Assembly (NCBI GenBank): GCA_041615815.1
Contig: JBFJCP010000047.1
Location: 1 to 22,984 of the forward strand
From: Gemmatimonadales bacterium
Lineage (GTDB): Bacteria; Gemmatimonadota; Gemmatimonadetes; Gemmatimonadales; GWC2-71-9
Length of the DNA: 22,984 nucleotides
Reading direction: 5' to 3'
Shown here: positions 3,842 to 22,984 of the stretch, piece after piece
How the letters are laid out: the number at the start of each line of letters is the position of its first letter
How positions within the stretch are numbered: position 1 is the first letter of the stretch
Notes under the pieces: model-generated
What the model saw: the letters and a program-made list of their open reading frames with translations, nothing else
Database searches by the model: none
Told to the model about the DNA's origin: nothing
Position numbers and translations under genes: made by a program

Positions 3842-5734
3842 CTAGCTGACGGCGCGGAGGATGCGCTCCTTTTGCCCGGTCGTCAGCATGTCACGGGCAA
3901 TGACGTCACGGACAATTCGTGCCACGAATGCGTAACCACGGGCATCGGCGGAGAGCCAGCGCTGCCATTCCAGTTCGTCGAGCGCGGCGGCAAGCGTGCC
4001 CGGGTCGAGACCGAGAGCAGCGGCGAGCAGCTGTTCCGATACCGGTTCCGGCAGCACGCTGGTGCCCGCGAGTACCTGCTGCGCCGGCTGGCTCAATCGG
4101 CGAAACCCGACCCGGATGGCGGCGATGATGGCGTCGGGAAGGTCGCCGGGCATTGTTTGGGAAAGGGTATGAAAGGGCGCCGGCCAGACGCCGGGCACGT
4201 GCTCGAGCTCGAGGCCCAACGCCACGGCGTGGAGCAACTCGACCGCGAGGAGCGGGATGCCGGCCGAATCGGCGTGCACCCGGCGGGCAACGCGATCGAT
4301 CTGATCTTCGTCACTGGTGGGAAGCGCCCAGGTGGCCAGGCGCCGTAGCGCCGTCTCATCGAGAGGGCCAGGCCGCACCGTCACCCCAGCAACGTCTCGG
4401 CCAATCAAACTGCGCAAATCATCCAGTTCGGTCCGCGATGGGTGCGGTTCGAGCGCAAACCCGACCGCGAGAGGTCGCGTTGCCACATCGCGTGTGAGGG
4501 CGACGAGCCCCAAGAGGGACTCGCGATCAGACCACTGGGCGTCGTCGAGGAGCAGCACGACCGGATGTTCATCGGCGATGACCCCGACAATCCGACTCAG
4601 CGCCGCGTCGAGCGGCATCGGTGTGTTCTTGGGAGCGCCGAACCGATCCGTCCAATCGGGAAGCCGGTGGGTGAAGGCGGCGAGGGCTTCCGGCGGTGCC
4701 GCCGCCACTCCTGGGGCGTTCGCGAGCCCCTCTGCGATGCCGAGGATGGCACTAAAGGGTCTCTGGCGATCTGCTTCGACCCCCCGCACGGTCGCGACGA
4801 TGGCTCCGGCGAGGCGGGCGCGCGCCTCGAACTCTTCGGCCAATCGGGTTTTCCCAATTCCCGCGTCGGCCACGATCAACAAGGTCAGTGCTCGACGATC
4901 GTTCACGCTTTCGTGCCAAGATTCGAGCAATCGTTCGAGCTCTTGTTCACGCCCCACCAGCGGCGCTCGTCGCAGCTGCGCTCCCGACCGCTCGTCCCGC
5001 GGCACCGATGCGGGGAGGTTCCACGTACGTTGGGCTCGCACGCGCGTGGCCAGGGCGGTGGTTTCGTGGTTCGGTTGCAGATCCAGATCGCCCAAACGCT
5101 GGGTGAACTGGTCGAAACACGTCAGCGCCACCGCCCGCTCGCCCAACAAGGCGTGCGCTCGCATCGCGCGTTGCACAGCCCGATTCGACGTCGGGTCGAG
5201 CGCGATCGCTCGGAGCGCCGTTGCGGCAGCCTCGTGCACCTGACCTCGGGCGATCGATAGGTCGCAGGATGCGACAACGGCTCCAACGCTCTTGCTTCGC
5301 CAACGGGTGCGCTCGACGGCAAGCCAGTCTTCGAACGGTGAGGCATCGGGAACCGTGAACCCTTCCATGAACTCCCCATCGACCAGGGCCGCGGCAGCGT
5401 CGAGGTCTCCGCGGGATTCCAGCGCCTCGAACTGGTCCGTGTCGAGCGTCACGGCAGCGGGATCGAGCGCAATGGTTCGGCTGTCGGCGTGCACGCCGGG
5501 ATCGCCGAGGCTGCGACGGAGCACCCGAACCGCTTCGCGCAGCGATTGTCGCGCGGCACTGTCTGGTTTGTCGCCCCACAGCAATGCGGTGAGGTGTTCT
5601 CGGGTGCGCGATCGTTCCGGTGAACGCGCCAAGTAGACCAACAGGGCAAGGTGCTTGCGCCAGAGCAATGCGGGCGGTGGTGGGGCGCCATCGATGGTCA
5701 CCAGCGGTGGGCCAAGCGTTCGACAAAAAATCAC
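3842..5734 (-). CDS. AfsR/SARP-family transcriptional regulator: OmpR-type winged-helix DNA-binding domain, BTAD, and NB-ARC/AAA ATPase
   Basis: N-terminal wHTH (LWRKHLALLVYLARSPERSRTREHLTALLWGD...SLREAVRVLRRSL) and a BTAD region. Walker A LLIVADAGIGKTRL and Walker B VVLLLDDAQWSD. No C-terminal TPR domain. The GTG start overlaps the upstream kinase stop (GTGA). Confidence 0.8.
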   Translation of the reverse strand: MIFCRTLGPPLVTIDGAPPPPALLWRKHLALLVYLARSPERSRTREHLTALLWGDKPDSAARQSLREAVRVLRRSLGDPGVHADSRTIALDPAAVTLDTDQFEALESRGDLDAAAALVDGEFMEGFTVPDASPFEDWLAVERTRWRSKSVGAVVASCDLSIARGQVHEAAATALRAIALDPTSNRAVQRAMRAHALLGERAVALTCFDQFTQRLGDLDLQPNHETTALATRVRAQRTWNLPASVPRDERSGAQLRRAPLVGREQELERLLESWHESVNDRRALTLLIVADAGIGKTRLAEEFEARARLAGAIVATVRGVEADRQRPFSAILGIAEGLANAPGVAAAPPEALAAFTHRLPDWTDRFGAPKNTPMPLDAALSRIVGVIADEHPVVLLLDDAQWSDRESLLGLVALTRDVATRPLAVGFALEPHPSRTELDDLRSLIGRDVAGVTVRPGPLDETALRRLATWALPTSDEDQIDRVARRVHADSAGIPLLAVELLHAVALGLELEHVPGVWPAPFHTLSQTMPGDLPDAIIAAIRVGFRRLSQPAQQVLAGTSVLPEPVSEQLLAAALGLDPGTLAAALDELEWQRWLSADARGYAFVARIVRDVIARDMLTTGQKERILRAVS

Positions 5735-8750: not shown

Positions 8751-10022
8751 CTACGACTCGTTGTCGGAAGCCCTGGCGCCCAGCCGACTCAGAATGTTCA
8801 CGCCGGTGGCCGTTTCGATTTGCTCCGTGATCTTGATGATGGCTTCAGGAAGCTGTCCCGCCGCCGAAGCGATGCCGGTTCCCCTCCCCCCGGAATCGAT
8901 CACCGTGACCTTGTCGATGTCCATGGCACCCACGGACTTGGTGATCTCCCGGATGATGTCCGGCAGCATGTTGAGGATGAAGATGCGTTCGGCTTCGGTG
9001 CCGGCATTCTGATACAGCTTGATCGTTTCGTCGAGTACAAAGAGACGCGCCCGCCCGTCTTCGGTGATGGTGGCCGCCGATCCCTTGGCGCGCTCTTCCG
9101 CCGCCTCGCGATCCGCCTTGGCGGGCAGGAGCACGTCGGCTTCGAGCCGGCGTTGCTCGAGGGCGATTCGTTCCTGTTGCAGCGCTTGCTCCGCCACCGC
9201 GCGGGCTTTCTCCCCTGACACTTTGGCTTCGGCTTCGCGTGCCAGGGCCTCCGCCTCCAACTCGGCGCGGCGTACCCGCAGCAGATTGTTCTCTTCGGCG
9301 ATCTTGAGGTCGGCCTGAATGGCGGCGATCTGCGCCGCCTGCCGAGCCGAAGCTTCGGTTTGCTCCGCCTCGGACGCACGCTTGGCTTCGGCCACCCGCG
9401 CGACTTTGAGGATCTCCGCGGTTCGCTGCCGTCCAATGGAGTCCAGGTAGTTCACCTCGTCGGTGACGTTCTGGACCTTGAGCGTGTCCAACTCGAGGCC
9501 GAGTTTCTTGAGATCTTCGTCCGCTTCCTCGATGAGGCGGTGGGCGAACTTGAGCCGATCCTCGTTGACTTCCTCCGGTGTGAGAGTGGCGAGCACCCCA
9601 CGGAGGTTTCCTTCCAACGTGTCCTTTGCGATGTGCATGAGATCGTTGAACGGCTTATCGAGGAGCCGCTCGACCGCGTTGTGAGACACGGGATCCCGCG
9701 CACTCACCTTGACGTTGGCAATCCCCTGGACGATCAGCGGAATCCCGCCCTTGGAATACGCGTTCCTGACGATCACGTCGATCGGAATGGTTCGGAGATC
9801 GATCCGCGACACGCGCTCCACGATGGGGATGCGGAGCGTGCGGCCGCCGTGCAGGAGCCGGTAGCCCACTTTGCGGCCGTCACCGGTAACCCGATGACGC
9901 CCGGTGATGACGACGAGCTCGTTGGGAAGGCAAATCACGATGAGCGATTTGACGACGTACACCAGTGCGCCGACGATGCCGAGGGCCACGGCGCCGAGAA
10001 TGAGACCGACGGTGGGATTCAT
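8751..10022 (-). CDS. flotillin / SPFH (band-7) family protein (YqiK/FloA-like)
   Basis: N-terminal TM (LILGAVALGIVGALVYVV), SPFH core (NELVVITGRHRV...IDLRTIPIDVIVRNAYSKGGIPLIVQGIANVKV), a long Ala/Glu-rich coiled-coil flotillin tail. 423 aa. Start overlaps the upstream NfeD-like stop by 4 nt. Confidence 0.85.
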   Translation of the reverse strand: MNPTVGLILGAVALGIVGALVYVVKSLIVICLPNELVVITGRHRVTGDGRKVGYRLLHGGRTLRIPIVERVSRIDLRTIPIDVIVRNAYSKGGIPLIVQGIANVKVSARDPVSHNAVERLLDKPFNDLMHIAKDTLEGNLRGVLATLTPEEVNEDRLKFAHRLIEEADEDLKKLGLELDTLKVQNVTDEVNYLDSIGRQRTAEILKVARVAEAKRASEAEQTEASARQAAQIAAIQADLKIAEENNLLRVRRAELEAEALAREAEAKVSGEKARAVAEQALQQERIALEQRRLEADVLLPAKADREAAEERAKGSAATITEDGRARLFVLDETIKLYQNAGTEAERIFILNMLPDIIREITKSVGAMDIDKVTVIDSGGRGTGIASAAGQLPEAIIKITEQIETATGVNILSRLGARASDNES

Positions 10023-10657
10023 GATTTCCTCTGAAATTCCCCGGGGGGTAACTCACGAGACTCGAAGGGCATGATCTCCGCTTCGGTCTCGTGCATTCGT
10101 AACACCACGACCTCTCGGCCGGGATCCAGGGTCAGGTCGTATCCGGCCGCGAGGCGCGCCGTGACGTGGACTTCGCGTTCGCCAACCGTGCAGGCAATGC
10201 GTCCGCGGACGCCCTGGGACACGGGAATGATCACTCGGGCCAGCGATCCTTCGAGATCCGCGTCACTCACCGCATCGACGGCCGTGTCGGAGCGCTTGAG
10301 CCACAAGAACACGCTGTGGGTCACGACCATGGCGCCCAACCCCATGGCCAGCGAGGGGATGAGTCCGCCGAGCCGGGAAACGGGCGTGAGCAGGGTGAGC
10401 AGCGTTCCAGTGATCCCAAACGTGGCCAGAAAGAAGATCATGTTGCGGGGACGGAGGAGCCCGAGGATGAGATCGCCGGCTCCGACGTGGGCGTCGTGAT
10501 CGGCATCGTGACCATCGTGACCCCCATCGGCGTCGTGGTCGATATCGTGATCGATCTCGCCGCTGTCGACGTCCGAGCCATCATCCCCGCCCGCGAGCAC
10601 CGAGAACATCAGGAGCCCACCACCGAGCACCGCTGCAAAGATGTAGATGCCGAGCAT
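10019..10657 (-). CDS. NfeD-like (YqiJ-type) membrane protein, partner of the flotillin, with His/Asp-rich loop
   Basis: Start set at the internal ATG (MLGIYIFAAVLGG). Three predicted TM helices, then a C-terminal beta-rich NfeD/OB-like domain (SLARVIIPVSQGVRGRIACTVGEREVHVTARLAAGYDLTLDPGREVVVL). Loop GGDDGSDVDSGEIDHDIDHDADGGHDGHDADHDAH lies after the first TM. Position directly upstream of the flotillin is the canonical yqiJ-yqiK arrangement. Confidence 0.7.
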   Translation of the reverse strand: MLGIYIFAAVLGGGLLMFSVLAGGDDGSDVDSGEIDHDIDHDADGGHDGHDADHDAHVGAGDLILGLLRPRNMIFFLATFGITGTLLTLLTPVSRLGGLIPSLAMGLGAMVVTHSVFLWLKRSDTAVDAVSDADLEGSLARVIIPVSQGVRGRIACTVGEREVHVTARLAAGYDLTLDPGREVVVLRMHETEAEIMPFESRELPPGEFQRKS

Positions 10658-10904: not shown

Positions 10905-11519
10905 GTGACCCTCACCCGTCTCAGCGCACTCGCCGGCATTGCGGCGGTCGTCCTCCTCGTGGGCATGACCGTGGTTTTCGGTGCCTTGACACCGGGCTAC
11001 TCGCACTGGTCTCAGGTGATCAGCGAATTGGGAGCCCGGGGCGCACCGCTTGGTCGAACGATGGGCTATGTCGGCATTGCCGGCTTTGGCATGCTGATCC
11101 TGCTCTTTGCGCCCACGATGGTCCTTGCGCGCCGGCCCGGTCCGATTACCGCATTGAGCGCAGCGCTCCTGGTGATCATGGGGGGAGGTGTGGCGCTCGC
11201 GGGGCTCTTCCAGTGCGATGTGGGATGCAGTCTGGAAGCACCGTCGGTCACGATGGCGCTCCACGTGTGGTCATCGTTCGTCGCGTTTCTGGCGGCAGCC
11301 GCGGCACCGCTGGTGTTAGCCCTGCGTCTGCGCAGCACCACGGAGGAGCGGAGATACCTGCAGTACGGATTGGTGACCGGCCTTGCGATGTTCGGGGTGA
11401 CCTTTTGGATCATGGCGATCGGCCCCACCGCAACCTACCTCGGCGCGCTGCAACGGCTCTTTCTCGTGCTCTTCTGTAGCTGGGTGGTGGTGACAGCGGT
11501 CAAGGCGCTGCGTAGCTAG
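10905..11519 (+). CDS. DUF998-family integral membrane protein
   Basis: Five to six hydrophobic helices. The characteristic motif GYSHWSQVISELGARGAP follows the first TM. GTG start at 10905. Confidence 0.6.
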   Translation: MTLTRLSALAGIAAVVLLVGMTVVFGALTPGYSHWSQVISELGARGAPLGRTMGYVGIAGFGMLILLFAPTMVLARRPGPITALSAALLVIMGGGVALAGLFQCDVGCSLEAPSVTMALHVWSSFVAFLAAAAAPLVLALRLRSTTEERRYLQYGLVTGLAMFGVTFWIMAIGPTATYLGALQRLFLVLFCSWVVVTAVKALRS

Positions 11520-11771
11520 CTCACCATATCCCTCGTTCCTCGAACGTGTGCGTGCCTCCGAGAACCGCACCTGGAATACATGGTACGTGTTGCGGTGTGG
11601 ACGCTCCATGAGCAGCCCAATTTCGTGGGCAACAGGGGTGGTTCCGAAGTTGCTCACCACGAGGTCGACCGCTTCATTGAACGGGCGACCGTGCTCGACG
11701 GTGGCAGCGGTGGTGTACTCCTTCTCGGTGAAGGGGACCAGCACGGCCTCGGGAGCGGGGCGTAGCGGCAT
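11316..11771 (-). CDS. candidate small ORF with degenerate zincin-like motif; only the first ~84 codons (11520..11771) are non-overlapping
   Basis: ATG at 11771 with GGAGG 4 nt upstream. N-terminal half is protein-like and contains VAHEIGLLMERPH, which matches the metzincin-type HEIGHxLGLxH pattern except that His5 is replaced by Leu. The 3' 200 nt lies antisense to the well-supported DUF998 C-terminus, so that part is probably not coding. Confidence 0.25.
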   Translation of the reverse strand: MPLRPAPEAVLVPFTEKEYTTAATVEHGRPFNEAVDLVVSNFGTTPVAHEIGLLMERPHRNTYHVFQVRFSEARTRSRNEGYGELATQRLDRCHHHPATEEHEKEPLQRAEVGCGGADRHDPKGHPEHRKAGHQSVLQVSPLLRGAAQTQG

Positions 11772-11897
11772 CAGTCCTCCGGGGGAAAGGCATGGGGAGG
11801 TGGGAGTTGCGCGTCCAACGGTTATGCCATCCGATCATGCCGCAGTCAATTCCGTGACGCCTACATCACATACCGCATACGCTCTGGTCTCCGATCC

Positions 11898-11927
11898 TTG
11901 ACGCTGGCCCAGCCCGTAGCGTATCAA
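11898..11927 (+). promoter_or_regulatory. sigma70-like promoter candidate for the csgG-like gene (TTGACG-N18-TATCAA)
   Basis: Hexamers read directly at 11898-11903 and 11922-11927. A ~120-nt leader follows that contains two TGTACA palindromes (12000-12005 and 12013-12018) and a GAGGAGG Shine-Dalgarno 6 nt before the ATG at 12057. Confidence 0.35.
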
Positions 11928-12056
11928 TGATGATGGATCTCAAGACGCCGGTAGAGCTGGACTTGAGTCGCAAATGTCGGCTGGCGGCTACGCTCTATCT
12001 GTACACATACGCTGTACACCGAATTGCGCCGGAGATCAGCACCGAGGAGGTCACCG

Positions 12057-12944
12057 ATGAGGGGTCGTACATTAGCCGCGCTCGCGGCGATTCTGGTGTT
12101 TGCGAGCGGTCCCTGGACCGCCAGTCGCGTGGACGCGCAAAAAGTCCGCGTCGCCGTCTTAGCCCTCGATAACAACAGCACCTGGAGCTACTGGGGTGCC
12201 CACCTCGGTGAGGCGGCCTCCGACGAGCTGACCACGCAGCTCGTGAAGTCCGGTCAGTTCTCCGTGATCGAGCGACGGCAGATCGACGCCATTCTGGCCG
12301 AACAGGGGTTTGGGCAGAGCGGCCGGGTGAATCCCGCGACCGCCGCTGCCATCGGAGAAGTACTTGGCGTCCAAATCGTCTTCATGGGATCCATTACGCA
12401 GTTCTCGATCGAGACCAAGAAGGCCGGTATCGGCGGGATCGGCGCGTCGTTCACGGAAGCCGAAAGCATGCTGGACATTCGCGCGGTCAACACGTCGACG
12501 GCGGAGATCATGTCCGTGGCCGAAGGTCAAGGCAAGAAGCGGCTCGGCGGGATCAACATCAACAACGTGAGCTTTCAGCAGAACTTCGACGCGGGGTTGG
12601 CGCAGGAAGCGCTACGACCCGCGATCGAGGACGTCGTGAAGGAACTCGTCAAGCAGGTGGACGACTTCGCGGCGGTGGCTCCCGTGGCTGCGAGGGCCAC
12701 CATCGTGGGCGTACGGGAGGGCTCGATCTACATCGACCGCGGTGAGAACTTCGGCGTACAGCCTGGGCAGCGGTTCGACGTCTATCGCGTCGTGGACGAG
12801 ATCCGAGACGCGAACGGCAATCTGTTGGACCGCGTCACCGAGAAGGTGGGCGTAATCGAGTGTGCCAGGGTGCTTTCACAGTCCGCGGTCTGCTCGATCG
12901 TCGAGGGAGATGCGGCCGAAGGGGATGAGGCGAGGGGGAGTTGA
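12057..12944 (+). CDS. CsgG-family lipoprotein (curli secretion channel-like / LpoB-like fold) with ~90-aa C-terminal beta-domain; no csgA/B/E/F neighbours
   Basis: Signal peptide MRGRTLAALAAILVFASGPWTA. CsgG-type core (KVRVAVLALDNNS...SDELTTQLVKSGQFSVIERRQIDAILAEQ...VLGVQIVFMGSITQF). Strong RBS. C-terminal extension ATIVGVREGSIYIDRGENFGVQPGQRFDVYRVVDEIRDANGNLL...VCSIVEG. Confidence 0.7.
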   Translation: MRGRTLAALAAILVFASGPWTASRVDAQKVRVAVLALDNNSTWSYWGAHLGEAASDELTTQLVKSGQFSVIERRQIDAILAEQGFGQSGRVNPATAAAIGEVLGVQIVFMGSITQFSIETKKAGIGGIGASFTEAESMLDIRAVNTSTAEIMSVAEGQGKKRLGGININNVSFQQNFDAGLAQEALRPAIEDVVKELVKQVDDFAAVAPVAARATIVGVREGSIYIDRGENFGVQPGQRFDVYRVVDEIRDANGNLLDRVTEKVGVIECARVLSQSAVCSIVEGDAAEGDEARGS

Positions 12945-12962
12945 CGGATCAATGAGGACGTG

Positions 12963-12989
12963 AGGGGCGAGGGATAGCACCCCGCCCCT
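12963..12989. terminator. GC-rich hairpin exactly between two convergent stop codons (12944 and 12992); no U-tract
   Basis: AGGGGCG(A)GGG-ATAGCA-CCCCGCCCCT gives a 10-bp stem with one bulge and a 6-nt loop. Confidence 0.35.
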
Positions 12990-12991
12990 AC

Positions 12992-15817
12992 TCACCCCCC
13001 ACCTACTTGTCCCGGAGTCACCGGCCGCGGCCGGTTCTCTGAGGTCCCATCGCCGAGCTGGCCGCCGTCGTTGGCACCCCAGCACCGCGCCTGCCCCGAG
13101 GCCGTGAGCGCGCAGGTATGCACGCGGCCGGTACTCACTGACACGAAATCGTCTCCCGGAACGCGCACCGGCACGACCCGAGGGGTGGTGGTGCCGTCGC
13201 CGAGCTGACCGAACCGATTATCGCCCCAGCAGTAGAGCCGCTTGGTGTTGGTGATGCCGCAGGTATGGGTCGCACCCGCACTCAGCGACTCGAACGCGAG
13301 CGGTATGTTACCCCCCATGGGAGCGCGGACCGGGCGCGGTGCGTGCCGCGGCTGCTTGGAACCGTCTCCCAGCTGACCGTACTGGTTATCCCCCCAGCAC
13401 ATCGCCGTCCCCACACGGGTGAGGGCACAGGTGTGATTCGTGCCGGCCGCGACGTAGACGAGATACCCGTGGTCGCCCTCGACCTCGGTGGGCTGTGTGA
13501 CGTAACCGCGCTCGAGCGTTCCGGTGCCCGTCTGGCCCGATGCGTCACTTCCCCAGCAGTACACGCGCCCGCTCAGCAGACCGCAGTTGTGCTCGGCACC
13601 CACCGCCAGCATCTCGAACGCGATCTCGCCTTGCACCTGGGTGAGCGCGCCGCCTGATGTGGTTCCGTTCCCCAGCTGCCCCCGGTCGTTGGCGCCCCAG
13701 CACGCGGCCGATCCACCGGAAGTGAGCCCACACGCATGCCGCTGCCCCGCGGCGATCGAGCGGAAGCGACCCGCTGGCGGTGCCAGCCCGCCCCAACAGA
13801 CCACGCTCTGATCCGGGTTGAGCGCGCAGGTGAGCAGGCCGCCCGCGCTCACGGCCGCAAAGCGGCCCGGGCGGGGGAAGGGAAAGCGCTGCGACCGTCC
13901 GAGACGTGACCCCACCTGCCCGCGGTCGTTCCTTCCCCAACAGTAGACCAGACCGTCCGCGGCCACACCGCAGGTGTGATCGGCACCGGCGGAAATGCTG
14001 CGGAAGGTGGGAACCACTGGCGACACGGATAGGGCGGTGCGGGACTCCAACCCGCCGGTACTCGCGAGCAGCTGCGTGTTCCCTACCCCAACCGCAATCA
14101 CCCAACCTCCGTCGCCTACTCGCACGACGTCCTGATCGTCCGCAACGAGACGAGGGGCCGATGCCGTGCCCAGCGATCGATTGCGATCGTCCAGCAGCGT
14201 GACGGCTACGCGGACGGAGTCCCCGATCCGAAGGGATGTCTGCGGGACACCGAGCCGGAGAGCAGTGGCACCCGCAGCCGACGTCTCGGCTCCGCCTCCG
14301 GATGGCTGCCCACCTCCTCCACCCTGATTCGTCTGCCCGTCACCGGGGGCCGCAGACACGGACACCGTGAGGGTGGCCTCGGCAACTCCTGCTCGCGCGG
14401 TGATACTGGCCTGGCCATTTCCGAGCGCGATCACCTGGCCGTCCTTGCTGACCGAGGCCACCGTGAGGCGATCGCTCTCCCAATCGATGGGGGAACGGAG
14501 TCGCTCACCGCCCGAGTCGAGCACGATCGCCTCGAGGGGTACGGTGTCTCCGAGTGCAAGAGACAGCGCGACATCGGACAGCACGATCGTCGCCGGCATG
14601 CCCCCCGAACCCCCTCCCCAGGGGAGCACGAAGAACCCGACGAGCGCTGCGGTAACGACGGCCGCCCCACCCACGGCCAGGCGGCGTCGCTTTGGCCGGA
14701 ACCACTGCGAGATCGTGCTCGTGAGCGAGCTTTGGCGGGGCTCGGGAAGGGGTGTCACCCACGTGTCGCTGTCCTCACCCGCCTCGAGCGTCTGTCCGCT
14801 GGCCAGCGCAGCAGCCTGTGTCCACACCGGATCGTCGGGTGGCGGCGGTGTTCCGACCGCGCTCACGACCTCGCGCATGGAGGGCCACCGGGCATCGGGG
14901 GCCTTCTCCAGCATACGGTGCACAGCCTGAGCGATCGCCGGCGGGCAGTCCGGACGCAACTTGCCGACGAAGTCCGGTGCTTCGCCCGTATGGGCGAGTG
15001 CCATATCCGAGAACGACTCACCGTCGAACGGGGGAGCGCCGGCCAGCATCGCGTACGCGACGATGCCGAGGGAATACTGATCGCTCGCGGACGTCACGGG
15101 CTGCCCCTTCCACTGTTCGGGGCTCGCGTAGGCAGGCGTTCCGAGGAAGCCGCCCGTGACGGTCTTCCATTTGGGATTCACCTGCAGCTTGGCAATGCCA
15201 AAGTCGGTGAGCACGGCGTTGCCATCGGTGTCGATGAGGATATTCCCCGGCTTGATATCGCGGTGAATCACGCCCTTGCGGTGCGCGAACTCGAGGGCGC
15301 TCGCAACCTGGGAGAGCCACAGCCGGACGATGGGTACGGGCAAGGTGCGCGTCTGCTCGAGGATGCGATCGAGGGATCGGCCGGGAATCAGGTCCAGGAT
15401 GAAGAAATGGAGCCCCTCGTGGTGGCGAAGGTCGTGCACGGTTACGATGTTCGGATGACGGAGACCGGCGATGGTGCGGGCTTCTTGCCGAAACCGTTCC
15501 ACCGTCTGCTCGTCGAGCCCTGCACCCGGCAACATCACTTTGATGGCCACCGGTTTGTGGAGCACGAGGTCCTGGGCCCGGTACACGGCCCCCATCCCAC
15601 CCTGGCCGAGTGTTGCTTCGATCTCGTACCGGCCTTCCGTGGCCTCGCGTAGGCCGGCGAGGATGGATCCCCACCCCCCGCTGAACGGCGTCTGCTGCTC
15701 GGGCTCGGTGGGAAGCGTCTTGTCTCCGTCACCCCCCAGCTGCGTGCCGCATTGGGGACAGAAAGTCACCGCGCTGGAGACGGTGTTCAGACAGGTGGGA
15801 CAGGTGATGGGATCCAT
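12992..15817 (-). CDS. multidomain Ser/Thr kinase: zinc ribbon, kinase domain, TM helix, two Big_2 Ig-like domains, seven-bladed RCC1 propeller
   Basis: Start at the internal ATG (MDPITCPTCLNTVSSAVTFCPQCGTQL, a CxxC...CxxC zinc ribbon). Kinase motifs GQGGMGAVYRA, VAIKVM, HRDIKPGNILI, DFGIAK, GTPAYASPEQ. TM helix LAVGGAAVVTAALVGFFVLPW. Two Big_2-like modules (ATIVLSDVALSLALGDTVPLEAIVLDSGGERLRSPIDWESDRLTVASVSKDGQVIALGNGQASITARAG...; ALRLGVPQTSLRIGDSVRVAVTLLDDRNRSL...). Seven CWG-containing RCC1 blades (HTCGVAADGLVYCWGRNDRGQVG ... ARCWGANDGGQLGDG). The upstream 118 codons of the ORF-track ORF read through the G-rich repeat and are taken as non-coding. No Shine-Dalgarno; an ATCGATCGAT palindrome ends 2 nt upstream of the ATG. 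Confidence 0.85.
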   Translation of the reverse strand: MDPITCPTCLNTVSSAVTFCPQCGTQLGGDGDKTLPTEPEQQTPFSGGWGSILAGLREATEGRYEIEATLGQGGMGAVYRAQDLVLHKPVAIKVMLPGAGLDEQTVERFRQEARTIAGLRHPNIVTVHDLRHHEGLHFFILDLIPGRSLDRILEQTRTLPVPIVRLWLSQVASALEFAHRKGVIHRDIKPGNILIDTDGNAVLTDFGIAKLQVNPKWKTVTGGFLGTPAYASPEQWKGQPVTSASDQYSLGIVAYAMLAGAPPFDGESFSDMALAHTGEAPDFVGKLRPDCPPAIAQAVHRMLEKAPDARWPSMREVVSAVGTPPPPDDPVWTQAAALASGQTLEAGEDSDTWVTPLPEPRQSSLTSTISQWFRPKRRRLAVGGAAVVTAALVGFFVLPWGGGSGGMPATIVLSDVALSLALGDTVPLEAIVLDSGGERLRSPIDWESDRLTVASVSKDGQVIALGNGQASITARAGVAEATLTVSVSAAPGDGQTNQGGGGGQPSGGGAETSAAGATALRLGVPQTSLRIGDSVRVAVTLLDDRNRSLGTASAPRLVADDQDVVRVGDGGWVIAVGVGNTQLLASTGGLESRTALSVSPVVPTFRSISAGADHTCGVAADGLVYCWGRNDRGQVGSRLGRSQRFPFPRPGRFAAVSAGGLLTCALNPDQSVVCWGGLAPPAGRFRSIAAGQRHACGLTSGGSAACWGANDRGQLGNGTTSGGALTQVQGEIAFEMLAVGAEHNCGLLSGRVYCWGSDASGQTGTGTLERGYVTQPTEVEGDHGYLVYVAAGTNHTCALTRVGTAMCWGDNQYGQLGDGSKQPRHAPRPVRAPMGGNIPLAFESLSAGATHTCGITNTKRLYCWGDNRFGQLGDGTTTPRVVPVRVPGDDFVSVSTGRVHTCALTASGQARCWGANDGGQLGDGTSENRPRPVTPGQVGGG

Positions 15818-15848
15818 GAGATCGATCGATGGGTGACAAAGGAATGTA

Positions 15849-15917
15849 GGGGATAGGCGGGATAGGCGGGATAGGCAGCAGGGGCGGCAGGGGTGGCAGG
15901 GGTGGCAGGGGAGGCGG
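15849..15917. repeat. G-rich intergenic repeat, copy A: (GGGATAGGC)x3 followed by GGCAGGGGCGGCAGGGGTGGCAGGGGTGGCAGGGGAGGCGG, including a G4N5G4N5G4N5G4 motif at about 15881..15911
   Basis: Read directly. Sits in the 138-bp divergent spacer between the RCC1 kinase (-) and the ECF sigma gene (+). Confidence 0.8.
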
Positions 15918-15955
15918 ATGCAGACGGTAAACGGCGCAGAGGCACGTGGCATCTC

Positions 15956-16588
15956 ATGGTTGGACCAGCAACCGGAACGCTCTTGAGTGAAGGACAGCGG
16001 CTCGACGAGGCCGTCCGGCCACTGGTGTGGCGGGCGAAGGCGGGTGACGAGGAGGCGCTTACCCGGGTGCTGGAGTGGTGCCGGCGGCGGATCTACCGCT
16101 GGGCCCTGGGGATCACGAGTGACGCCGACGACGCCGACGACGTCACCCAGGAGGTACTGATCACCCTGCACTGGAAGCTCCGGAGCTTCCGGGAGGAGTC
16201 ACGGTTCACCACGTGGCTGTATCGCGTGACGAAGAATGCGGCGTTGGGACTCATGAGACGGCGGCAGAGGCGGCAGGGGCGGCAGAAGGAGGCTGAGGGA
16301 GGGGGACGGGATTTGGGAGCCCATAACGAGGTCGAACGGGACCGACTGCATGGCCTGTATCTGTCTGAGATGGGAGCGTTGGTGCGGACGTTGTTTCATG
16401 AGCTGCCGGAGCGGCAGCGGGAGATCTTCGACCTGGTGGACCTCCAGGGATTCGCGCCGATCGAGGTGGCGGACATGTTGGCGCTGAAGCCGGTGACCGT
16501 GCGCGCTCACCTGTTCAAGGCCCGGCGCCAGATGCGGATGAAGATTGTGGAACGCAATCCTGAGATCGCCGAGGAGTTCATCCAATGA
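15956..16588 (+). CDS. ECF (group IV) sigma-70 factor
   Basis: Region 2 (DVTQEVLITLHWKLRSFREESRFTTWLYRVTKNAALGLMRRR) and region 4 (LPERQREIFDLVDLQGFAPIEVADMLALKPVTVRAHLFKARRQMR). Start at the internal ATG; the ORF-track extension back to 15893 lies inside repeat A. The linker RRRQRRQGRQKEAEGGGRDLG is encoded by an in-frame copy of the G-rich repeat. ATGA overlap with the downstream anti-sigma gene. Confidence 0.85.
   Translation: MVGPATGTLLSEGQRLDEAVRPLVWRAKAGDEEALTRVLEWCRRRIYRWALGITSDADDADDVTQEVLITLHWKLRSFREESRFTTWLYRVTKNAALGLMRRRQRRQGRQKEAEGGGRDLGAHNEVERDRLHGLYLSEMGALVRTLFHELPERQREIFDLVDLQGFAPIEVADMLALKPVTVRAHLFKARRQMRMKIVERNPEIAEEFIQ
16258..16316 (+). repeat. in-frame copy (E) of the (GGCGGCAGRGG)n repeat inside the ECF sigma linker
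   Basis: GGCGGCAGAGGCGGCAGGGGCGGCAGAAGGAGGCTGAGGGAGGGGGACGGGATTTGGG matches the intergenic copies A, B and C. Confidence 0.6.
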
Positions 16589-17076
16589 ACTGCGTGGAAG
16601 CGCGGGAACGGATTCTCGAAGCGGACCTGCCGGAGCTGAGGGAGACGGGTGCGTCGGATTTGAGCAAGCATCTGCGGCTGTGCGCGAGATGTCGTGGCGC
16701 CGCCGAGCGGATTCTGCGCGAGGAGCTGGCATTGGCGAATGCGCTGGCGGCGCTAGAGCCGACGGCCGCCGACAACAAAGCCACGGATCACCCGGCTGTG
16801 GGTGATGCTCGTACGATCGCGGATCGCACCACGGCTGATCGCCAGCGTTCCGCTCCCCGGCGCTGGTGGTGGGCAGTGGCCGCACCCGCAGTGGCGGCCG
16901 CGGGTCTCGTGGGAATCATGGTGACGCGGGGAACCGTGACCGTCGATCCGGAAGCAGGCGTGATCCCGACGCTGGAGATGTTGCCGCCCACTCCACTCAT
17001 CGAGCCGGCGGCGGCACGCGACTTCGCCGTGTTCGAAACGGACAATCCGGACATCGTGGTGGTTTGGTTCTTTTGA
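16585..17076 (+). CDS. zinc-binding (ZAS-type) transmembrane anti-sigma factor
   Basis: Translationally coupled to the sigma gene (ATGA). ZAS motif HLRLCARC (H-x3-C-x2-C). One TM helix (WWWAVAAPAVAAAGLVGIMV). Short extracytoplasmic tail. Confidence 0.75.
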   Translation: MNCVEARERILEADLPELRETGASDLSKHLRLCARCRGAAERILREELALANALAALEPTAADNKATDHPAVGDARTIADRTTADRQRSAPRRWWWAVAAPAVAAAGLVGIMVTRGTVTVDPEAGVIPTLEMLPPTPLIEPAAARDFAVFETDNPDIVVVWFF

Positions 17077-17078
17077 CA

Positions 17079-17134
17079 GGGGGGATGGGCCGGATAGGCG
17101 GCGGAAGCGGCAGGGGCGGCAGGGGCGGCAGAGG
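17079..17134. repeat. G-rich intergenic repeat, copy B (GGGGGGATGGGCCGGATAGGCGGCGGAAGCGGCAGGGGCGGCAGGGGCGGCAGAGG)
   Basis: Read directly. Begins 3 nt after the anti-sigma stop and ends about 25 nt before the lipoprotein ATG. Confidence 0.8.
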
Positions 17135-17159
17135 TGAAGCAAGCGAAAAGGTGCACACA

Positions 17160-17828
17160 ATGAAACCGACAATGCTGATTGCGCTTGGTGTTCTTGCTGT
17201 TGTCCTCACGGCATGCGGCCCCGGAACGCGGCTCGAGACTCGGACCTTCGAGGTGCAATACCTGCAACCACACGAGGTCGAGGAGCTCATCGCTCCATAC
17301 GTCTTCAACGAGCAGGCCCGTCTCTCGGTGGGCAGCACGGCCATTTCGGTGCGCGAGACGGCGGCCAACTTGGACCAGATCGAGCGAGTCCTTGCCCGCT
17401 ACGATCGGCCCAAGCCGGGGGTACGGCTCCATTTCCAGCTCATCCGGGCCAACGGGACAGATCGCACCGATCCGGAGATTGCGGATGTCGAATCCGCCCT
17501 GCGAAAGCTGTTCCGGTTCCAGGGATATCGGCTCGTGGCCGAGGCGGTGGTGGCGGGGGTGGAGGGTAGCCAGGCACAACAAGCCATCCGTGCGCAGGGA
17601 TCGGGCGCGCAGTACGCCATCAGCGCGCACATCATGGAAGTCAGAGCGGTCGGTGACAGCGGGACGGTCCGCGTGTTGGTCAACCTCATGATGGAGAACA
17701 TCGGGACGGCGCTTCAGACCGGTGTGAACTTGAGGGCCGGGCAGACCGTTGTACTAGGCAACGTGCAAGCGGATCCGCAGAGTGACACGATCATTCTGAC
17801 GGTGCGGCCGGAGTTTGTGGAGACGTAG
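17160..17828 (+). CDS. lipoprotein of unknown function (two tandem ~90-aa alpha/beta modules)
   Basis: Start at the internal ATG with AAAGG upstream. Signal peptide and lipobox MKPTMLIALGVLAVVLTAC. The ORF-track extension to 16866 reads through repeat B and the anti-sigma 3' end and is rejected. Confidence 0.7.
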   Translation: MKPTMLIALGVLAVVLTACGPGTRLETRTFEVQYLQPHEVEELIAPYVFNEQARLSVGSTAISVRETAANLDQIERVLARYDRPKPGVRLHFQLIRANGTDRTDPEIADVESALRKLFRFQGYRLVAEAVVAGVEGSQAQQAIRAQGSGAQYAISAHIMEVRAVGDSGTVRVLVNLMMENIGTALQTGVNLRAGQTVVLGNVQADPQSDTIILTVRPEFVET

Positions 17829-17870
17829 GGCGGGATAGGCGGATACGGGGGAGCAGCAGGGGCGGCAGGA
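17828..17870. repeat. G-rich intergenic repeat, copy C (GGGCGGGATAGGCGGATACGGGGGAGCAGCAGGGGCGGCAGGA)
   Basis: Read directly. Lies in the convergent spacer between the lipoprotein (+) and the DUF1059 gene (-). Confidence 0.75.
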
Positions 17871-17911
17871 AGAATCGATGCGAGTATCCGGCCGCCGCTA
17901 CCGCCTGACTA

Positions 17912-18088
17912 TCACACGGTTTTGATCGCGCCTTTCACCTTGGCGGCAAGATCCGGCGTCACCTCCTGAATGTCGTGCACGTCCTTGGCGTGGGCTGCCG
18001 CTTTCTGCATTACCTCTTGTTCGGTTTCACCCTTGGCCACGAAATCGCAGCCCGGCATCAAGTCGTTGCACTGGAGTTGCTTGGCCAT
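17912..18088 (-). CDS. DUF1059-family small metal-binding protein (58 aa)
   Basis: Not in the ORF track (too short). Own translation of the minus strand: MAKQLQCNDLMPGCDFVAKGETEQEVMQKAAAHAKDVHDIQEVTPDLAAKVKGAIKTV. This fits the DUF1059 consensus (MAKxLxCxDxGxDCDFxxxGETEEEVLxKAAEHAxxxHG...E) well. AAGGAG 11 nt upstream of the ATG. A CT-rich tract lies further upstream. Confidence 0.7.
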   Translation of the reverse strand: MAKQLQCNDLMPGCDFVAKGETEQEVMQKAAAHAKDVHDIQEVTPDLAAKVKGAIKTV

Positions 18089-18245
18089 TGCTCTAGGTCT
18101 CCTTGATGGCAGTCAGTGATTGAAGTTAGAAAAGGAGCGGAAGAGACGGAAGAGACAGAGAGCAAAGGCGAGCGAATCCCTCCCTTACGTGAGCCTTACC
18201 ACCCTCACACATACCAATTGACCCCCACTTGACGGCCACTCCTCA

Positions 18246-21164
18246 TTGTTTCTTCAGGGAGGGCGCCGTACGTTGGCCGAAGTCGGTACAGAGCTGGAAC
18301 TCGTGAGCGTCGCTGAAGGTCGCATCACCACGATTGCCGGCCGCTACACCTTGGAGCGCGAGTTGGGTCGAGGCGGCATGGCCGTGGTGTACCTCGCCAC
18401 CGATTCTCGCCATCATCGCAGCGTCGCCATCAAAGTGTTGGACCCGCAGATTGCCGAGTCCACGGGCAAGCAGCGATTCCTGCAAGAGATCCGCATCGTC
18501 GCACAGCTCACCCACCCGAACATTCTCACGCTCATCGATTCGGGCCAGATCAATGGGGCGCTCTACTACGTCATGCCCTACGTGGATGGTGAGTCCCTGC
18601 GCACGCGCCTGAATCGTGAACGGCAGCTTCCGTTGCGGGACGCACTGCAAATCGCGCGTGAGGTGGCGGAGGCGCTCGATTACGCGCATCGACAAGACGT
18701 GATGCATCGGGACATCAAACCCGAGAACATTCTGCTCGAGGATGGTCACGCCGTCGTGGCCGATTTCGGGATTGCGTGTGCGATCAGGGAAGCCCGGGGC
18801 GAGAGCTGTACCATGCCGGGTGTCGTCGTCGGCACACCGTCTTACCTGAGCCCGGAGGTGTGCTCCGGCACTGCAGATCTGGATGCGCGCGTGGACATCT
18901 ACGCGCTCGGCTGCGTGCTGTACGAAATGCTCACCGGGGAGCCGCCGTTCACGGGACCCAACGGGCAGGCAATCATGGCGCGGCACGTGAACGAACCGGT
19001 TCCATCGCCTCGAGTTCTGCGCCCTTCCCTCTCCGAATCCGTGGAAGCGACGGTCAAAACGGCGCTCGCCAAGGCACCTGCCGATCGTTTTAGCTCGGCG
19101 GCGGAATTGGCAGAAACCGTCCGCGTGCTCGAGACGGGAGAGCAGGTCAAGATCTTGCGCGCCGTTCGGCGCCGGACGCGGTTCGCCCTCGCCGTGGCAG
19201 GGGTAGGGGTCGCGGCGTTTCTGGGCTGGCGGGTGTTTTGGCCCACGGTGGAGGCGTTCGATCCTCAACGCGTCGTCGTGTTTCCCACGGTCCAAAGTGG
19301 CGAGCTGGGCGGCAATGCCGATCTTGGCGAGCAGGTAACCATTGCGCTGCTCAACGCGCTCAACAGCACCGAGGTCGTGAAAGCCGTGGATGGGTGGCGG
19401 TTGCTCACCGAGCGACAGCGAGCGGATGTCCGGGGAATCTCGCCCAGGACCAGCCGATCGTTGGCACACCGGGCGGGGGCGGGCGCGTATCTCGAGGGAC
19501 GCATCCTCGCGGCCGACTCGCTCCGCTTGTCGCTACAGCTCATGACCCTCGACGGCGAATCCGGAGTTCAGCGCGTCATCGCGTTTGCGAGAAGCGCAGA
19601 CCCCTGGACGATCGGCGTCCACGCTGCGACCGCCCTGCTCCCCGCACTGATTCCCGCGGGCCGGCGCGGCGATCTCGTAACGCTCAATGCGCGCGACCCC
19701 GCCGCCACGGCCAGCTTCCTCCGAGGTGAACAGGCGTACCGGCGTGCGCAGTTCGAGGACGCGTTGGGACATTACCGCCACGCGGTGGTGGTCGACACGG
19801 CTTTTGCTCTGGCAGCGTTGCGGGGAGCCCAAGCCGCCAGCTGGAACTATCGACTGTTCGAAGCAGGCGAGTTCCTCGCGGCCGCACTGACCCATGCCCA
19901 CGGTCTCAATCCTCAGGACCTGCACTTAGCGCGGGGGTTCTCGGCCTACCTGCGCGCACGGGCTGACTCTGCCGTGCGCCATTTTCGCCTCGCGGTGGTC
20001 ATGGAACCGGAGTGGCCGGAAGCGTGGACGATGCTGGGCGAAGTGTACACGCATCTCCTCCCTCTCGCGGCACCACTCGATTCGCTGGCCGAGGTGGCGT
20101 TCAGGGCGGCACACATTAAAGAACCGGACTTCGGGCCGGCGCTCTACCATCTCCTCGAGATCGCGATTCGCAAGGGCGACCGTCAGGAGGCGCGGCGTCT
20201 CTTGAACCGATTTCAGGCGGGCACTCCGGACTCGCGTCAGCTCCTGACGGTGGATCTCATGTATCGGTGCGTGTTCAACTCGCCATCAATCATCGATTGG
20301 CGGCGGTACGTGCATCGGGGACCGCAGCAGGTGGTCGACGCCGCGCGATCCCTCACGGTGGGGGGCATCCGGCAGCCGGTCTGCGCAGAATCGGCGTGGA
20401 GGGCGGTATTGGCCCACGATTCAGCAAGGGACAATGCGTGGGACAACCGGCGGTGGGGCGCGCTTCGAGGTCTCCATGCCGTGCTCGTGGCGCAAGGAAG
20501 AACGGAGGAGCTCAAGACCACGCTTTCGGCCGATACCGTGTTCGGACGTGGGCTCATCGAACGGCTGCATATTCTCGCGGCCCTGGCGGGCGCGGACGTG
20601 CATCGTGAAGCAGCTGAGGCGGCCGACCATCTCCAGGAGGTGTACCGCGCCGATCCCACCGGGATGCGGAGCCTGCACGTGTGGCACCTCGGGATCTGGA
20701 ACGCGTCGCGGGGAGACGTTGCGACGGCCGAGGGTATCAGCGGCATGCTTGCAACGAGAGCAGCCAGCAGCGGAGATCGCCGCGAGCGCTTGCTGTCTCG
20801 GAGTCTGGCCGCACGGGTTGCGCTCGCCGCCGGGGACTCGAACGTGGCGCTCGGCCGGCTGCAGACCCTCGTCCCCGACACGGGTCGAGCGCCGCTCACC
20901 TGGAACGCGTGGGAATCCCTGGGGGGTGAGCGCATGCTGTTGGCCGAGCTCTTGATGGCGTCCGGCCGGTACGCGGAGGCGTGGCGCGTGGCGTCCAACT
21001 TCGATGCGCCGGCCCCGGTTCCCTACACGATGTACGTGCCCGCAAGCCTGGCGCTCCGCATCCGGATCGCCAGAGCACTCCAACAACAGGAGGTAGCACG
21101 AGGACTCACACGACGTCTCGTCGCGCTCGGGCGCGAGGATCTGATTCCGTTGGACGTGAACTGA
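18246..21164 (+). CDS. membrane Ser/Thr protein kinase with extracytoplasmic VVVFP/TPR-like sensor domain (paralogue of 5731..8556)
   Basis: GRGGMAVVYLA, VAIKVL, HRDIKPENILL, DFGIA, GTPSYLSPE. TM helix FALAVAGVGVAAFLGW. C-terminal domain begins QRVVVFPTVQ and aligns by eye with kinase 1 (FLRGEQAYRRAQFEDALGHYRHAVVVDTAFALAAL versus FVDGEAAFHRNAWRTAVRHYRDAFAIDSSFALAAW). No in-frame ATG lies before the Gly loop. The start is probably the TTG at 18273, 9 nt after GGGAGGG, or the GTG at 18303; 18246 is the maximal ORF. Confidence 0.8.
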   Translation: MFLQGGRRTLAEVGTELELVSVAEGRITTIAGRYTLERELGRGGMAVVYLATDSRHHRSVAIKVLDPQIAESTGKQRFLQEIRIVAQLTHPNILTLIDSGQINGALYYVMPYVDGESLRTRLNRERQLPLRDALQIAREVAEALDYAHRQDVMHRDIKPENILLEDGHAVVADFGIACAIREARGESCTMPGVVVGTPSYLSPEVCSGTADLDARVDIYALGCVLYEMLTGEPPFTGPNGQAIMARHVNEPVPSPRVLRPSLSESVEATVKTALAKAPADRFSSAAELAETVRVLETGEQVKILRAVRRRTRFALAVAGVGVAAFLGWRVFWPTVEAFDPQRVVVFPTVQSGELGGNADLGEQVTIALLNALNSTEVVKAVDGWRLLTERQRADVRGISPRTSRSLAHRAGAGAYLEGRILAADSLRLSLQLMTLDGESGVQRVIAFARSADPWTIGVHAATALLPALIPAGRRGDLVTLNARDPAATASFLRGEQAYRRAQFEDALGHYRHAVVVDTAFALAALRGAQAASWNYRLFEAGEFLAAALTHAHGLNPQDLHLARGFSAYLRARADSAVRHFRLAVVMEPEWPEAWTMLGEVYTHLLPLAAPLDSLAEVAFRAAHIKEPDFGPALYHLLEIAIRKGDRQEARRLLNRFQAGTPDSRQLLTVDLMYRCVFNSPSIIDWRRYVHRGPQQVVDAARSLTVGGIRQPVCAESAWRAVLAHDSARDNAWDNRRWGALRGLHAVLVAQGRTEELKTTLSADTVFGRGLIERLHILAALAGADVHREAAEAADHLQEVYRADPTGMRSLHVWHLGIWNASRGDVATAEGISGMLATRAASSGDRRERLLSRSLAARVALAAGDSNVALGRLQTLVPDTGRAPLTWNAWESLGGERMLLAELLMASGRYAEAWRVASNFDAPAPVPYTMYVPASLALRIRIARALQQQEVARGLTRRLVALGREDLIPLDVN

Positions 21165-21582: not shown

Positions 21583-21616
21583 ACAAAACCCCCGGCGATC
21601 GCCGGGGGTTTTGTTT
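21583..21616. terminator. bidirectional rho-independent terminator (ACAAAA-CCCCCGGCGATCGCCGGGGG-TTTTGTTT)
   Basis: Perfect 8-9 bp GC stem around a GATC centre, flanked by an A-tract on one side and a T-tract on the other. Lies between convergent genes, 22 nt from the minus-strand lipoprotein stop. Confidence 0.8.
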
Positions 21617-22392: not shown

Positions 22393-22423
22393 AAGGCGGC
22401 AGGGGCGGTACAAGCGGCAGAGA
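22393..22423. repeat. partial G-rich repeat, copy D (GAAGGCGGCAGGGGCGGTACAAGCGGCAGAG)
   Basis: Shares the GGCGGCAGGGGCGG core with copies A, B, C and E. Lacks the GGGATAGGCGG unit. Confidence 0.5.
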
Positions 22424-22462: not shown

Positions 22463-22951
<489 letters not shown>

Positions 22952-22984
22952 GGGCTAGGGGTTAGAACCCTTCGACGCGCGCAC

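Follow-up and report, generated by a model that had tools for sequence, protein, structure and literature searches.

What are the G-rich tandem repeats that lie between the genes of a sigma factor locus in an uncultured Gemmatimonadales bacterium, and do they belong to its proteins, to its promoter or to neither? The window, by which we mean the whole stretch of DNA that was analysed (22,984 nucleotides, contig JBFJCP010000047.1 of assembly GCA_041615815.1), carries an extracytoplasmic function (ECF) sigma factor gene followed by an anti-sigma-like gene and a lipoprotein gene, with a divergently transcribed Ser/Thr kinase gene on the other side of the sigma promoter. The initial annotation had read the repeats around this module as a lineage-specific, repetitive extragenic palindromic (REP)-like or structured non-coding family, and our analysis supports that description. 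With somewhat better than even confidence, we interpret three copies, A, B and C, as a lineage-specific non-coding interspersed repeat, a composite of two arrays of 9-nt units, (GGGATAGGC)n(GGCAGGGGY)n, that was duplicated whole into three spacers, drifts by slippage and has effects that depend on the position of each copy. The examined DNA of the organism is this 23 kb window, whose coordinates are used throughout.

The three copies share one layout, in which GGGATAGGC units (unit 1) are followed by GGCAGGGGY units (unit 2), and all of them lie on the + strand at gene boundaries, as the initial annotation had placed them. Copy A (15846..15917) occupies the divergent spacer between the start of the kinase gene (15817) and the sigma promoter; it reads GTAG, three GGGATAGGC units and then four to five copies of unit 2 (AGCAGGGGC, GGCAGGGGT twice, GGCAGGGGA and GGCGGATGC). 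Copy B (17079..17134), in the spacer between the anti-sigma and lipoprotein genes, consists of six 9-nt units (GGGATGGGC, CGGATAGGC, GGCGGAAGC, GGCAGGGGC twice and GGCAGAGGT), with its modules ordered as in A and in register with them. Copy C (17825..17870) starts with GTAG, whose TAG is the stop codon of the lipoprotein gene, and continues through GGGCGGGATAGGCGG into a degenerate unit-2 tract.

The shared layout was borne out by several comparisons. Exact copies of GGATAGGCGG were found at 15851, 15860, 17092 and 17833 and a copy with one mismatch at 15869, all on the + strand, while GGCAGGGGYGGCAGG with at most two mismatches matched 8 times against 0.27 expected, a count reached by none of 100 shuffles. 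Tandem Repeats Finder (TRF) returned period-9 arrays at 15850-15876 (GGGATAGGC, 3.0 units), 15874-15915 (4.7 units) and 17107-17131 (2.8 units), together with a further one at 16260-16298 within the sigma gene. Copies A and B match at 47 of 56 positions (shuffle mean 29.6, maximum 37; 47 reached by 0 of 2000 shuffles), and their identity is 82% over 60 nt. Copy C is more degenerate than A and B, and its match in an ungapped window was no better than that of shuffles; it shares with A an exact 14-mer (GGCGGGATAGGCGG) and an exact 17-mer (GCAGCAGGGGCGGCAGG), in the same order. The repeats of A, B and C are real and non-random. The window DNA was recovered at 99.8% identity from more than 10 independent sequencing runs, so the repeats are not an assembly artefact.

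Copy D, which had been proposed as a partial fourth member, fared less well. This weak unit-2-like stretch (22393..22423, + strand) upstream of the deaminase gene contains a 15-nt match to unit 2 and no unit 1, and we therefore did not count it as a member of the family; its membership is doubtful. The earlier distinction from CRISPR arrays was correct: these are defined by regular repeats of 24-48 bp with unique spacers, and the units here are 9 nt long and run head to tail without spacers.

None of the copies can be coding, because stop codons interrupt the sigma frame through A and the lipoprotein gene encodes a complete signal peptide (MKPTMLIALGVLAVVLTAC) from 17160. Continued through B (MGRIGGGSGRGGRGGRGEASEKVHT...), the lipoprotein frame also contains an ATG at 17085, which a gene caller used on one partial contig (L013, 4069-4290). 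We rejected the idea that B extends the lipoprotein at its N-terminus: the start used by orthologues is the downstream ATG, which is followed by the complete signal peptide and preceded by a well-spaced AAGGTG, a plausible Shine-Dalgarno sequence located downstream of B. The call at 17085 means that RGG-rich N-termini are at risk of being mis-annotated in the Gemmatimonadales source organism.

A fifth copy had been described in frame inside the sigma gene, where the repeat was thought to have been co-opted as a coding linker. The nucleotide resemblance is genuine, since the stretch in question (16258..16298, + strand), which encodes the Arg-rich peptide RRQRRQGRQ, matches B at 25 of 26 nt. The insertion is not: when 25 orthologous sigma factors were aligned, the linker proved only about 3 amino acids longer than in most of them, and the Arg-rich RRRxRRxxR was present in all 25. 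The window codons (CGG CGG CAG AGG CGG CAG GGG CGG CAG) correspond one for one to those of the orthologous locus L009 (CGG CGG GAG AGG CGG GAG GCG CGG GAG), and TRF found 9-nt arrays at the homologous site of the sigma genes of L009 and L026. This codon-for-codon colinearity with orthologues, together with their common RR[Q/E] 9-nt periodicity, rules out an inserted or co-opted repeat. Judged from the aligned codons, the stretch is an ancestral 9-nt-periodic coding sequence, and its periodicity is a consequence of a repeat of RR[Q/E] in the protein. Conversely, unit 2 may have originated from this coding stretch, or the two may have exchanged sequence by short-patch gene conversion.

We then asked how far the repeats extend beyond this organism by comparing the window with seven orthologous loci (L006, L009, L026, L027, L058, L059 and L060; sigma identity 45-64%). 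The sigma/anti-sigma/lipoprotein module is kept in all seven, and the repeat units of A, B and C were found in none of them (0 of 7). The spacer between the anti-sigma and lipoprotein genes measures 83 nt in the window, about 12 nt in L006, L009 and L026 (GGTCGAACTGCC in L006 and L009) and 11-13 nt in L058, L059 and L060, and the two genes overlap in L027. Since the relatives have such short spacers or an overlap, and no units, B is an acquisition of the window lineage. The composite pattern GGATAGGCGG-N(0-30)-(R)GCAGGGGYGGCAG gave 3 hits in genome contigs (596 Gb of species representatives) and 5 in JGI metagenome contigs, all of them chance matches in coding DNA of unrelated taxa. In the viral contigs of IMG/VR, GGATAGGCGGGATAGGC gave 4 hits, of which the three with a clear context were apparent chance coding matches and the context of L031 was unexamined, and three unit-2 copies gave 26 stretches, none of which was inspected. 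Six-frame peptides of A and B, compared with proteins to catch spurious open reading frames (ORFs) over other copies, yielded 2115 candidates, none scored, and a literature search combining Gemmatimonadetes with G-quadruplex or tandem repeats returned nothing relevant.

Within the population, the number of units in A was identical in six strain-level assemblies, which differed there by one G/T polymorphism. At B, 3 of the 6 contigs that reach the copy, from independent sample assemblies, end exactly at window position 17131, and in one contig ending there AGGTGA is replaced by GGGCGG, which amounts to one more GGCAGGGGC unit. Breaks of this kind arise in k-mer assembly when two alleles are present together; the number of units in B is therefore probably variable, which suggests a unit-number polymorphism at B between samples. 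Elsewhere in the window, a coding 9-nt tandem repeat, CATCGTGAC (10504-10522, in the gene at 10019-10648, - strand), differs by a 9-bp in-frame indel from the L001 and L012 strains and provides direct evidence for slippage of 9-nt units in this population. In one relative, intergenic indels or replacements of some 75-100 nt distinguish the strains (L060 9405-9628 versus L061 6921-7046; L060 10736-10989 versus L062 8203-8381), and the intergenic DNA of this clade appears to turn over fast.

These observations bear on the alternative that the copies are neutral low-complexity DNA, produced by independent slippage expansions in the G-rich spacers of a GC-rich genome, with neither dispersal nor function. 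Lineage specificity, the absence of the repeats from orthologues and the signs of polymorphism at B would all be expected under this view, as would the different arrays that the relatives possess and the fact, detailed below, that composition alone explains the G-quadruplex potential. What speaks against it is the structure of the copies: two different unit types recur in A and B with one order and one register, C has these two modules in that order, and independent slippage would not recreate such a composite three times. We consider neutral expansion quite unlikely. The shared order and register indicate that the composite element was copied as a whole into three spacers within a single operon region of 2 kb.

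Next, we considered whether the repeat could itself be the promoter of the module, since its place upstream of the sigma and lipoprotein genes had been taken to fit an autoregulated ECF promoter. An ECF-type promoter-like motif, GTAAACG-N16-CATCTCA (15927..15956, + strand), is invariant in the eight loci and precedes the sigma gene in every one (at 497 in L006, 9942 in L009, 4705 in L026, 4000 in L027, 9941 in L058, 9941 in L059 and 5942 in L060). GTAAAC-N(15-18)-CATC occurs once in the window (15927-15953) against 0.03 expected. The motif resembles ECF-type promoters of the TGTAAC/TGAAAC-N16-17-CGTC class. The conserved blocks of the eight-locus alignment are GTAAACG, a 16-nt spacer, C[A/G]TCTCA and the start codon with its context, and no conservation was seen upstream of the promoter blocks. 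The conserved motif lies next to the repeat and outside it, the -35-like element beginning 10 nt after the end of A, and no motif of the GTAAACG-N16-CRTCTCA type was found upstream of the lipoprotein gene. The repeat was therefore rejected as the ECF promoter. A scan of 15600-18400 for sigma-70 promoters and terminators detected no promoter and nothing relevant.

The same alignment bears on the sigma start. The start codon follows the motif by about 25-30 nt and is TTG with TTGAGTGA in 5 of 8 loci, with TTGAGCGA in L058 and L060 and GTG in L059. As the ATG at 15956 used by gene callers overlaps the -10-like element, the real start is probably TTG 15985, which would place the sigma gene at 15985..16588 (+ strand). 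Transcription of the sigma gene is predicted to begin at about 15960-15963, and transcripts would be expected to run through B into the lipoprotein gene. The promoter motif was also seen before a response-regulator gene in L026 (1173) and before the DUF1059 gene in L027 (5861), which are candidate regulon members.

If the repeat is not the promoter, it could still act on it through its structure. The initial annotation had pointed to a G-quadruplex (G4) motif in A and proposed a G4/i-motif switch. The motif, GGGG-N5-GGGG-N5-GGGG-N5-GGGG, is exactly as described (15881..15911, + strand), lies 16 nt upstream of the -35 element and has the top G4Hunter score of the window (2.32); on the kinase sense strand A is C-rich. 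By a strict criterion (four G-tracts of at least 3 G, loops of 1-7 nt) only A qualifies, C does so with loops of up to 12 nt, and B fails. When G4 formation was allowed in ViennaRNA, the energy of A went from -12.7 to -31.3 kcal/mol, against a mean of -31.4 for dinucleotide shuffles, and B (-17.2 versus -25.7) and C (-6.4 versus -14.1) were both worse than their shuffles. The copies contain about 45-50% G, and because A equals its shuffles and B and C fall below theirs, we attribute the G4 capacity to this composition and not to any arrangement common to the family.

One result favours the switch and supports it modestly, namely the recurrence of G/C-tract blocks, unrelated in sequence to A, upstream of the promoter in three of the other loci, which represent two further deep lineages. 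Over the 70 nt upstream of the conserved -35 element, the G4Hunter score of greatest absolute value was 2.32 in the window, with G on the sense strand, and -3.08, -2.68 and -2.08 in L059, L060 and L058, with C on the sense strand; L006, L009, L026 and L027 did not exceed 1.04. Of 7576 intergenic segments of 70 nt from the same loci, 2.2% reach 2.0 and 7.3% reach 1.5. L058 and L060 are related (sigma 75% identical, tracts alignable), and L059, whose tract follows a tRNA-Ser gene, is at 49% as far from them as the window is. Counting three independent lineages of seven, a binomial estimate is about 4e-4 at the threshold of 2.0 and about 0.01 at 1.5, for a sample that is small and partly post hoc. 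Strict G4 motifs are also about 5x denser in intergenic than in genic DNA across the loci (5 in 12 kb versus 8 in 100 kb).

A G4/i-motif regulatory switch, with the arrays tuning expression of the ECF module by folding as DNA upstream of the sigma promoter and as RNA upstream of the lipoprotein gene, would draw on the textbook motif of A close to the -35 element, on the large energy gain of A when G4 is allowed, on the blocks at the same position in three relatives and on the intergenic density of strict motifs. Set against this, B and C contain no strict G4 and fold worse than shuffles, A is no better than shuffles of its own composition, the strand is inverted between lineages, 4 of the 8 loci have nothing at this position, the threshold was set after the data had been seen, and L058 and L060 are not independent. 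We regard the switch as unlikely. A broader proposal would treat the G/C-tract blocks, with their G4/i-motif potential, as a recurrent upstream module of this Gemmatimonadota ECF promoter, convergent or deeply conserved, built from different fast-evolving tandem repeats and acting as a supercoiling-sensitive switch or as an insulator against the neighbouring transcription unit; we find it a decidedly doubtful proposal.

Copies B and C were also examined in their places. Watson-Crick folding of A (z = -0.64) and B (z = +0.53) was no better than that of shuffles. Copy C has a C-rich partial inverted partner at 17883..17911 (+ strand), with which it forms an imperfect hairpin of about 90 nt between the convergent lipoprotein (17160..17828, + strand) and DUF1059 (17912..18088, - strand) genes; the folding energy is -36.2 kcal/mol on the - strand (z = -3.15), and the z-score on the + strand is -0.86. 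A second stem-loop, on the - strand at 12964-12991, directly follows the kinase stop codon between convergent genes: this GTAG-tagged structure of 25 nt (GTAGGGGCGGGGTGCTATCCCTCGCCCC; z = -2.45) is REP-like in form and holds GGGATAGC, which is close to unit 1.

The hairpins raise the question of whether the family could be a REP/REPIN-type element mobilised by a REP-associated tyrosine transposase (RAYT, TnpA-REP). Copies A and C both start with GTAG(GG), the hairpin of C and its partner has GTAG...CTAC at its outer ends, and the stem-loop after the kinase stop codon carries the same tag. Nevertheless, neither A nor B contains a palindrome, GTAG is absent from B, the intergenic enrichment of GTAGGG was not significant (3 of 12 hits, p = 0.07), no Y1-transposase gene was seen in the annotated parts of the window and its flanks, and 9-nt tandem units are not a REP feature. 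A RAYT-mobilised origin is thus very unlikely.

The tandem layout upstream of the -35 element could alternatively be seen as a set of iteron-like direct repeats, that is, binding sites for a regulator controlling the sigma operon. GGGATAGGCGG is present three times in tandem at that place and once each in B and C, and the window includes a gene for a SARP/AfsR-like regulator (BTAD/AAA_16/Trans_reg_C, 3842-5734). With a spacing of 9 bp, however, neighbouring sites would not lie on one face of the helix, positions behind a stop codon or between cistrons would be odd for a transcription factor, and none of the orthologues has the sites despite the conserved module and promoter. We give this explanation hardly any credence.

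Taken together, the evidence leads back to a composite element that spread by duplication, and a course of events can be proposed for it. On the alignment of A, B and C, the composite tandem-repeat element would have been duplicated into the three spacers, and its arrays would then drift by replication slippage, as the polymorphism of B suggests. The element is dispensable for the sigma/anti-sigma/lipoprotein module and lies outside its conserved design, as its absence in seven relatives shows, and any local effects would be structural by-products of where each copy lies. Copy A would place a G4-capable and i-motif-capable block 10 nt upstream of the -35 element, also within the divergent kinase promoter region, and may modulate or insulate transcription. 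Copy B would widen a very short spacer, which presumably allows translational coupling, to 83 nt of unstructured G-rich RNA. Copy C and its inverted partial copy would form their hairpin between convergent genes, in a terminator-like position.

Several points weigh against this interpretation. The family rests on three copies within 2 kb of the 23 kb examined, so a purely local triplication is possible, and neither terminal inverted repeats nor target duplications nor a transposase came to light. The constant unit number of A among the six assemblies indicates that slippage is not rapid there. The G4 stability of A, equal to that of shuffles, and the poorer values of B and C indicate that G4 potential was not selected across the family. 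Moreover, the G-tracts at the promoter fall on the sense strand in the window and on the antisense strand in L058, L059 and L060; in these three loci they come after a terminator hairpin or a tRNA gene and may reflect a different phenomenon.

The relatives contain arrays of their own, analogous to those of the window but not homologous with them, which are intergenic with periods of 6-9 nt; genic tandem repeats are mostly, not only, multiples of three. Composite arrays of 7-8-nt units occur at L006 2309-2416 and 6575-6631 and at L059 1585-1666 and 9904-9935, and several of them form long hairpins after genes. Those of L006 comprise, after the lipoprotein gene, (AGTAAGG)2(GGGAAAG)7 with a pyrimidine array in inverted orientation behind it, and also (AGTGAGG)3(AGGGAAA)5, (GAGGGCA)4 and (GTGAGCA)/(CTCACCG); (GGGAAAG)7 is itself a strict G4 motif. 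In L059 a gene is followed by (CGGATGGA)5 and then (CCATCCGC)4; two arrays each were found in L009 and L027, and none in L026 or L058. To judge from these loci, the clade seems habitually to carry short-unit arrays that evolve fast and often pair into hairpins at the ends of genes. A unit shared across species, 'CGGATRG' (unit 1 of the window and the L059 array), was rejected as a coincidence, as its enrichment came from single arrays only.

The gene order around the module differs between the window and its relatives. In the relatives (L006 10-6501, L009 9120-11718) the order is DUF998, sigma, anti-sigma, lipoprotein, then csgG and the kinase on the - strand, and DUF1059; in the window (10905-18088) it is DUF998, csgG, kinase (- strand), sigma, anti-sigma, lipoprotein and DUF1059 (- strand). 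Copies A and C are direct repeats lying exactly at both new junctions that flank the relocated sigma module, and G-richness also marks the third rearrangement junction (11778-11809; G4Hunter 2.08). The module swap may have come about by recombination between repeats.

Other repeats and hairpins were noted in the window. A perfect palindrome with 19-nt arms and T-tracts at 21583-21614 (ACAAAACCCCCGGCGATCGCCGGGGGTTTTGT) is a canonical bidirectional intrinsic terminator, which implies that termination does not depend on the G-rich elements. A G-rich mini-array, GTAGGGGCTAGGGGTTAG, runs from the deaminase stop codon (22948-22984) and is cut by the right edge of the window, and a purine-rich 9-nt repeat, CGGAAGAGA (2.1 units), lies at 18138-18156 in the divergent spacer between the DUF1059 and TPR-kinase genes. 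Rfam 15 gave 0 matches at the gathering score over the whole window.

The gene map was based on Pfam and on gene calls on matching contigs, which were the only source of annotation for the ORFs left of about 10 kb. It contains the Ser/Thr kinase with RCC1 repeats (12992..15817, - strand), divergent from the sigma gene; the anti-sigma-like gene (16585..17076, + strand), which encodes 163 amino acids with an HxxxCxxC motif (HLRLCARC) and one hydrophobic segment; the lipoprotein gene, with a faint Secretin_N match; and further genes for a TPR Ser/Thr kinase, a 251-amino-acid ORF and a deaminase. About 1200 sigma orthologues are known (E<=1e-10), and the closest named homologues come from metagenome-assembled genomes of Gemmatimonadales. 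Extension of the contig through matching contigs gained only about 1 kb leftward, and a rightward search with the deaminase and TPR-kinase proteins found no exact product on record. Two public Logan contigs (L001 11586-11608 and L021 1-23) carry Illumina adapter sequence at their ends (GATCGGAAGAGCGTCGTGTAGG and its complement), which shows that their assemblies are contaminated with adapter.

At present the analysis serves mainly to correct what had been over-read: the repeat was not co-opted as coding sequence, and it does not constitute the promoter. Should copies of the element turn out to be abundant across the genome, no interspersed repeat family would have been described earlier from Gemmatimonadota, a soil phylum that has received little study; the element would then offer a variable-number tandem repeat (VNTR) marker for strain typing and would help to explain the fragmented assemblies of the organism. 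If the excess of G/C-tracts at the promoter holds, the locus would exemplify non-B DNA that occurs naturally at a defined promoter of a bacterium. Overall, we lean towards describing A, B and C as newly described interspersed intergenic short tandem repeats, akin to REPs and to the short tandemly repeated repetitive (STRR) sequences of cyanobacteria, with a possible structural role at the promoter.

How, finally, does the element compare with known systems? Promoter-proximal G4s are known in bacteria from pilE of Neisseria and from G4s engineered into E. coli promoters. Copy A resembles them in having a strict G4 motif a few nucleotides upstream of a -35 element; it differs in that its G4 is predicted from sequence, is a by-product of tandem repetition and has a stability not above that of shuffles. 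Mycobacterial VNTRs of the mycobacterial interspersed repetitive unit (MIRU) type have units of 40-100 bp, often with overlapping stop and start codons for translational coupling. Like them, B lies in sense orientation between neighbouring genes of an operon, with a number of units that seems to differ between strains; unlike them, it has 9-nt units and separates genes that are about 11-13 nt apart or overlapping in relatives.

REPs are defined as palindromes of 20-40 bp with a GTAG or CGTC tag (PMC3733652). With REPs, bacterial interspersed mosaic elements (BIMEs) and REPINs our family shares the character of small extragenic repeats at gene ends and, in the hairpin of C and its inverted partner between convergent genes, a classic REP position; GTAG stands at the 5' end of A and C and is absent from B. 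The 9-nt tandem substructure sets it apart, C pairs only with a separate downstream segment, and no RAYT gene is found among the annotated genes; as A and B contain no palindrome, the element is not a REP as defined in that work.

The cyanobacterial STRRs are short tandem units at several intergenic or intercistronic sites (e.g. hupS-hupL), lineage-specific, with some forming hairpins, and their function is unknown (PMC2670836). The units here are 9 nt instead of 7 nt, so the family is not an STRR in the strict sense; it combines two kinds of unit, always in one order within a copy, occurs in Gemmatimonadota, has no sequence similarity to STRRs and comprises three copies in 23 kb. The 7-nt arrays of L006, L009 and L059 behave very similarly to STRRs, and with period-9 arrays at three spacers and a lineage-specific distribution, A, B and C form an element that behaves most like an STRR.

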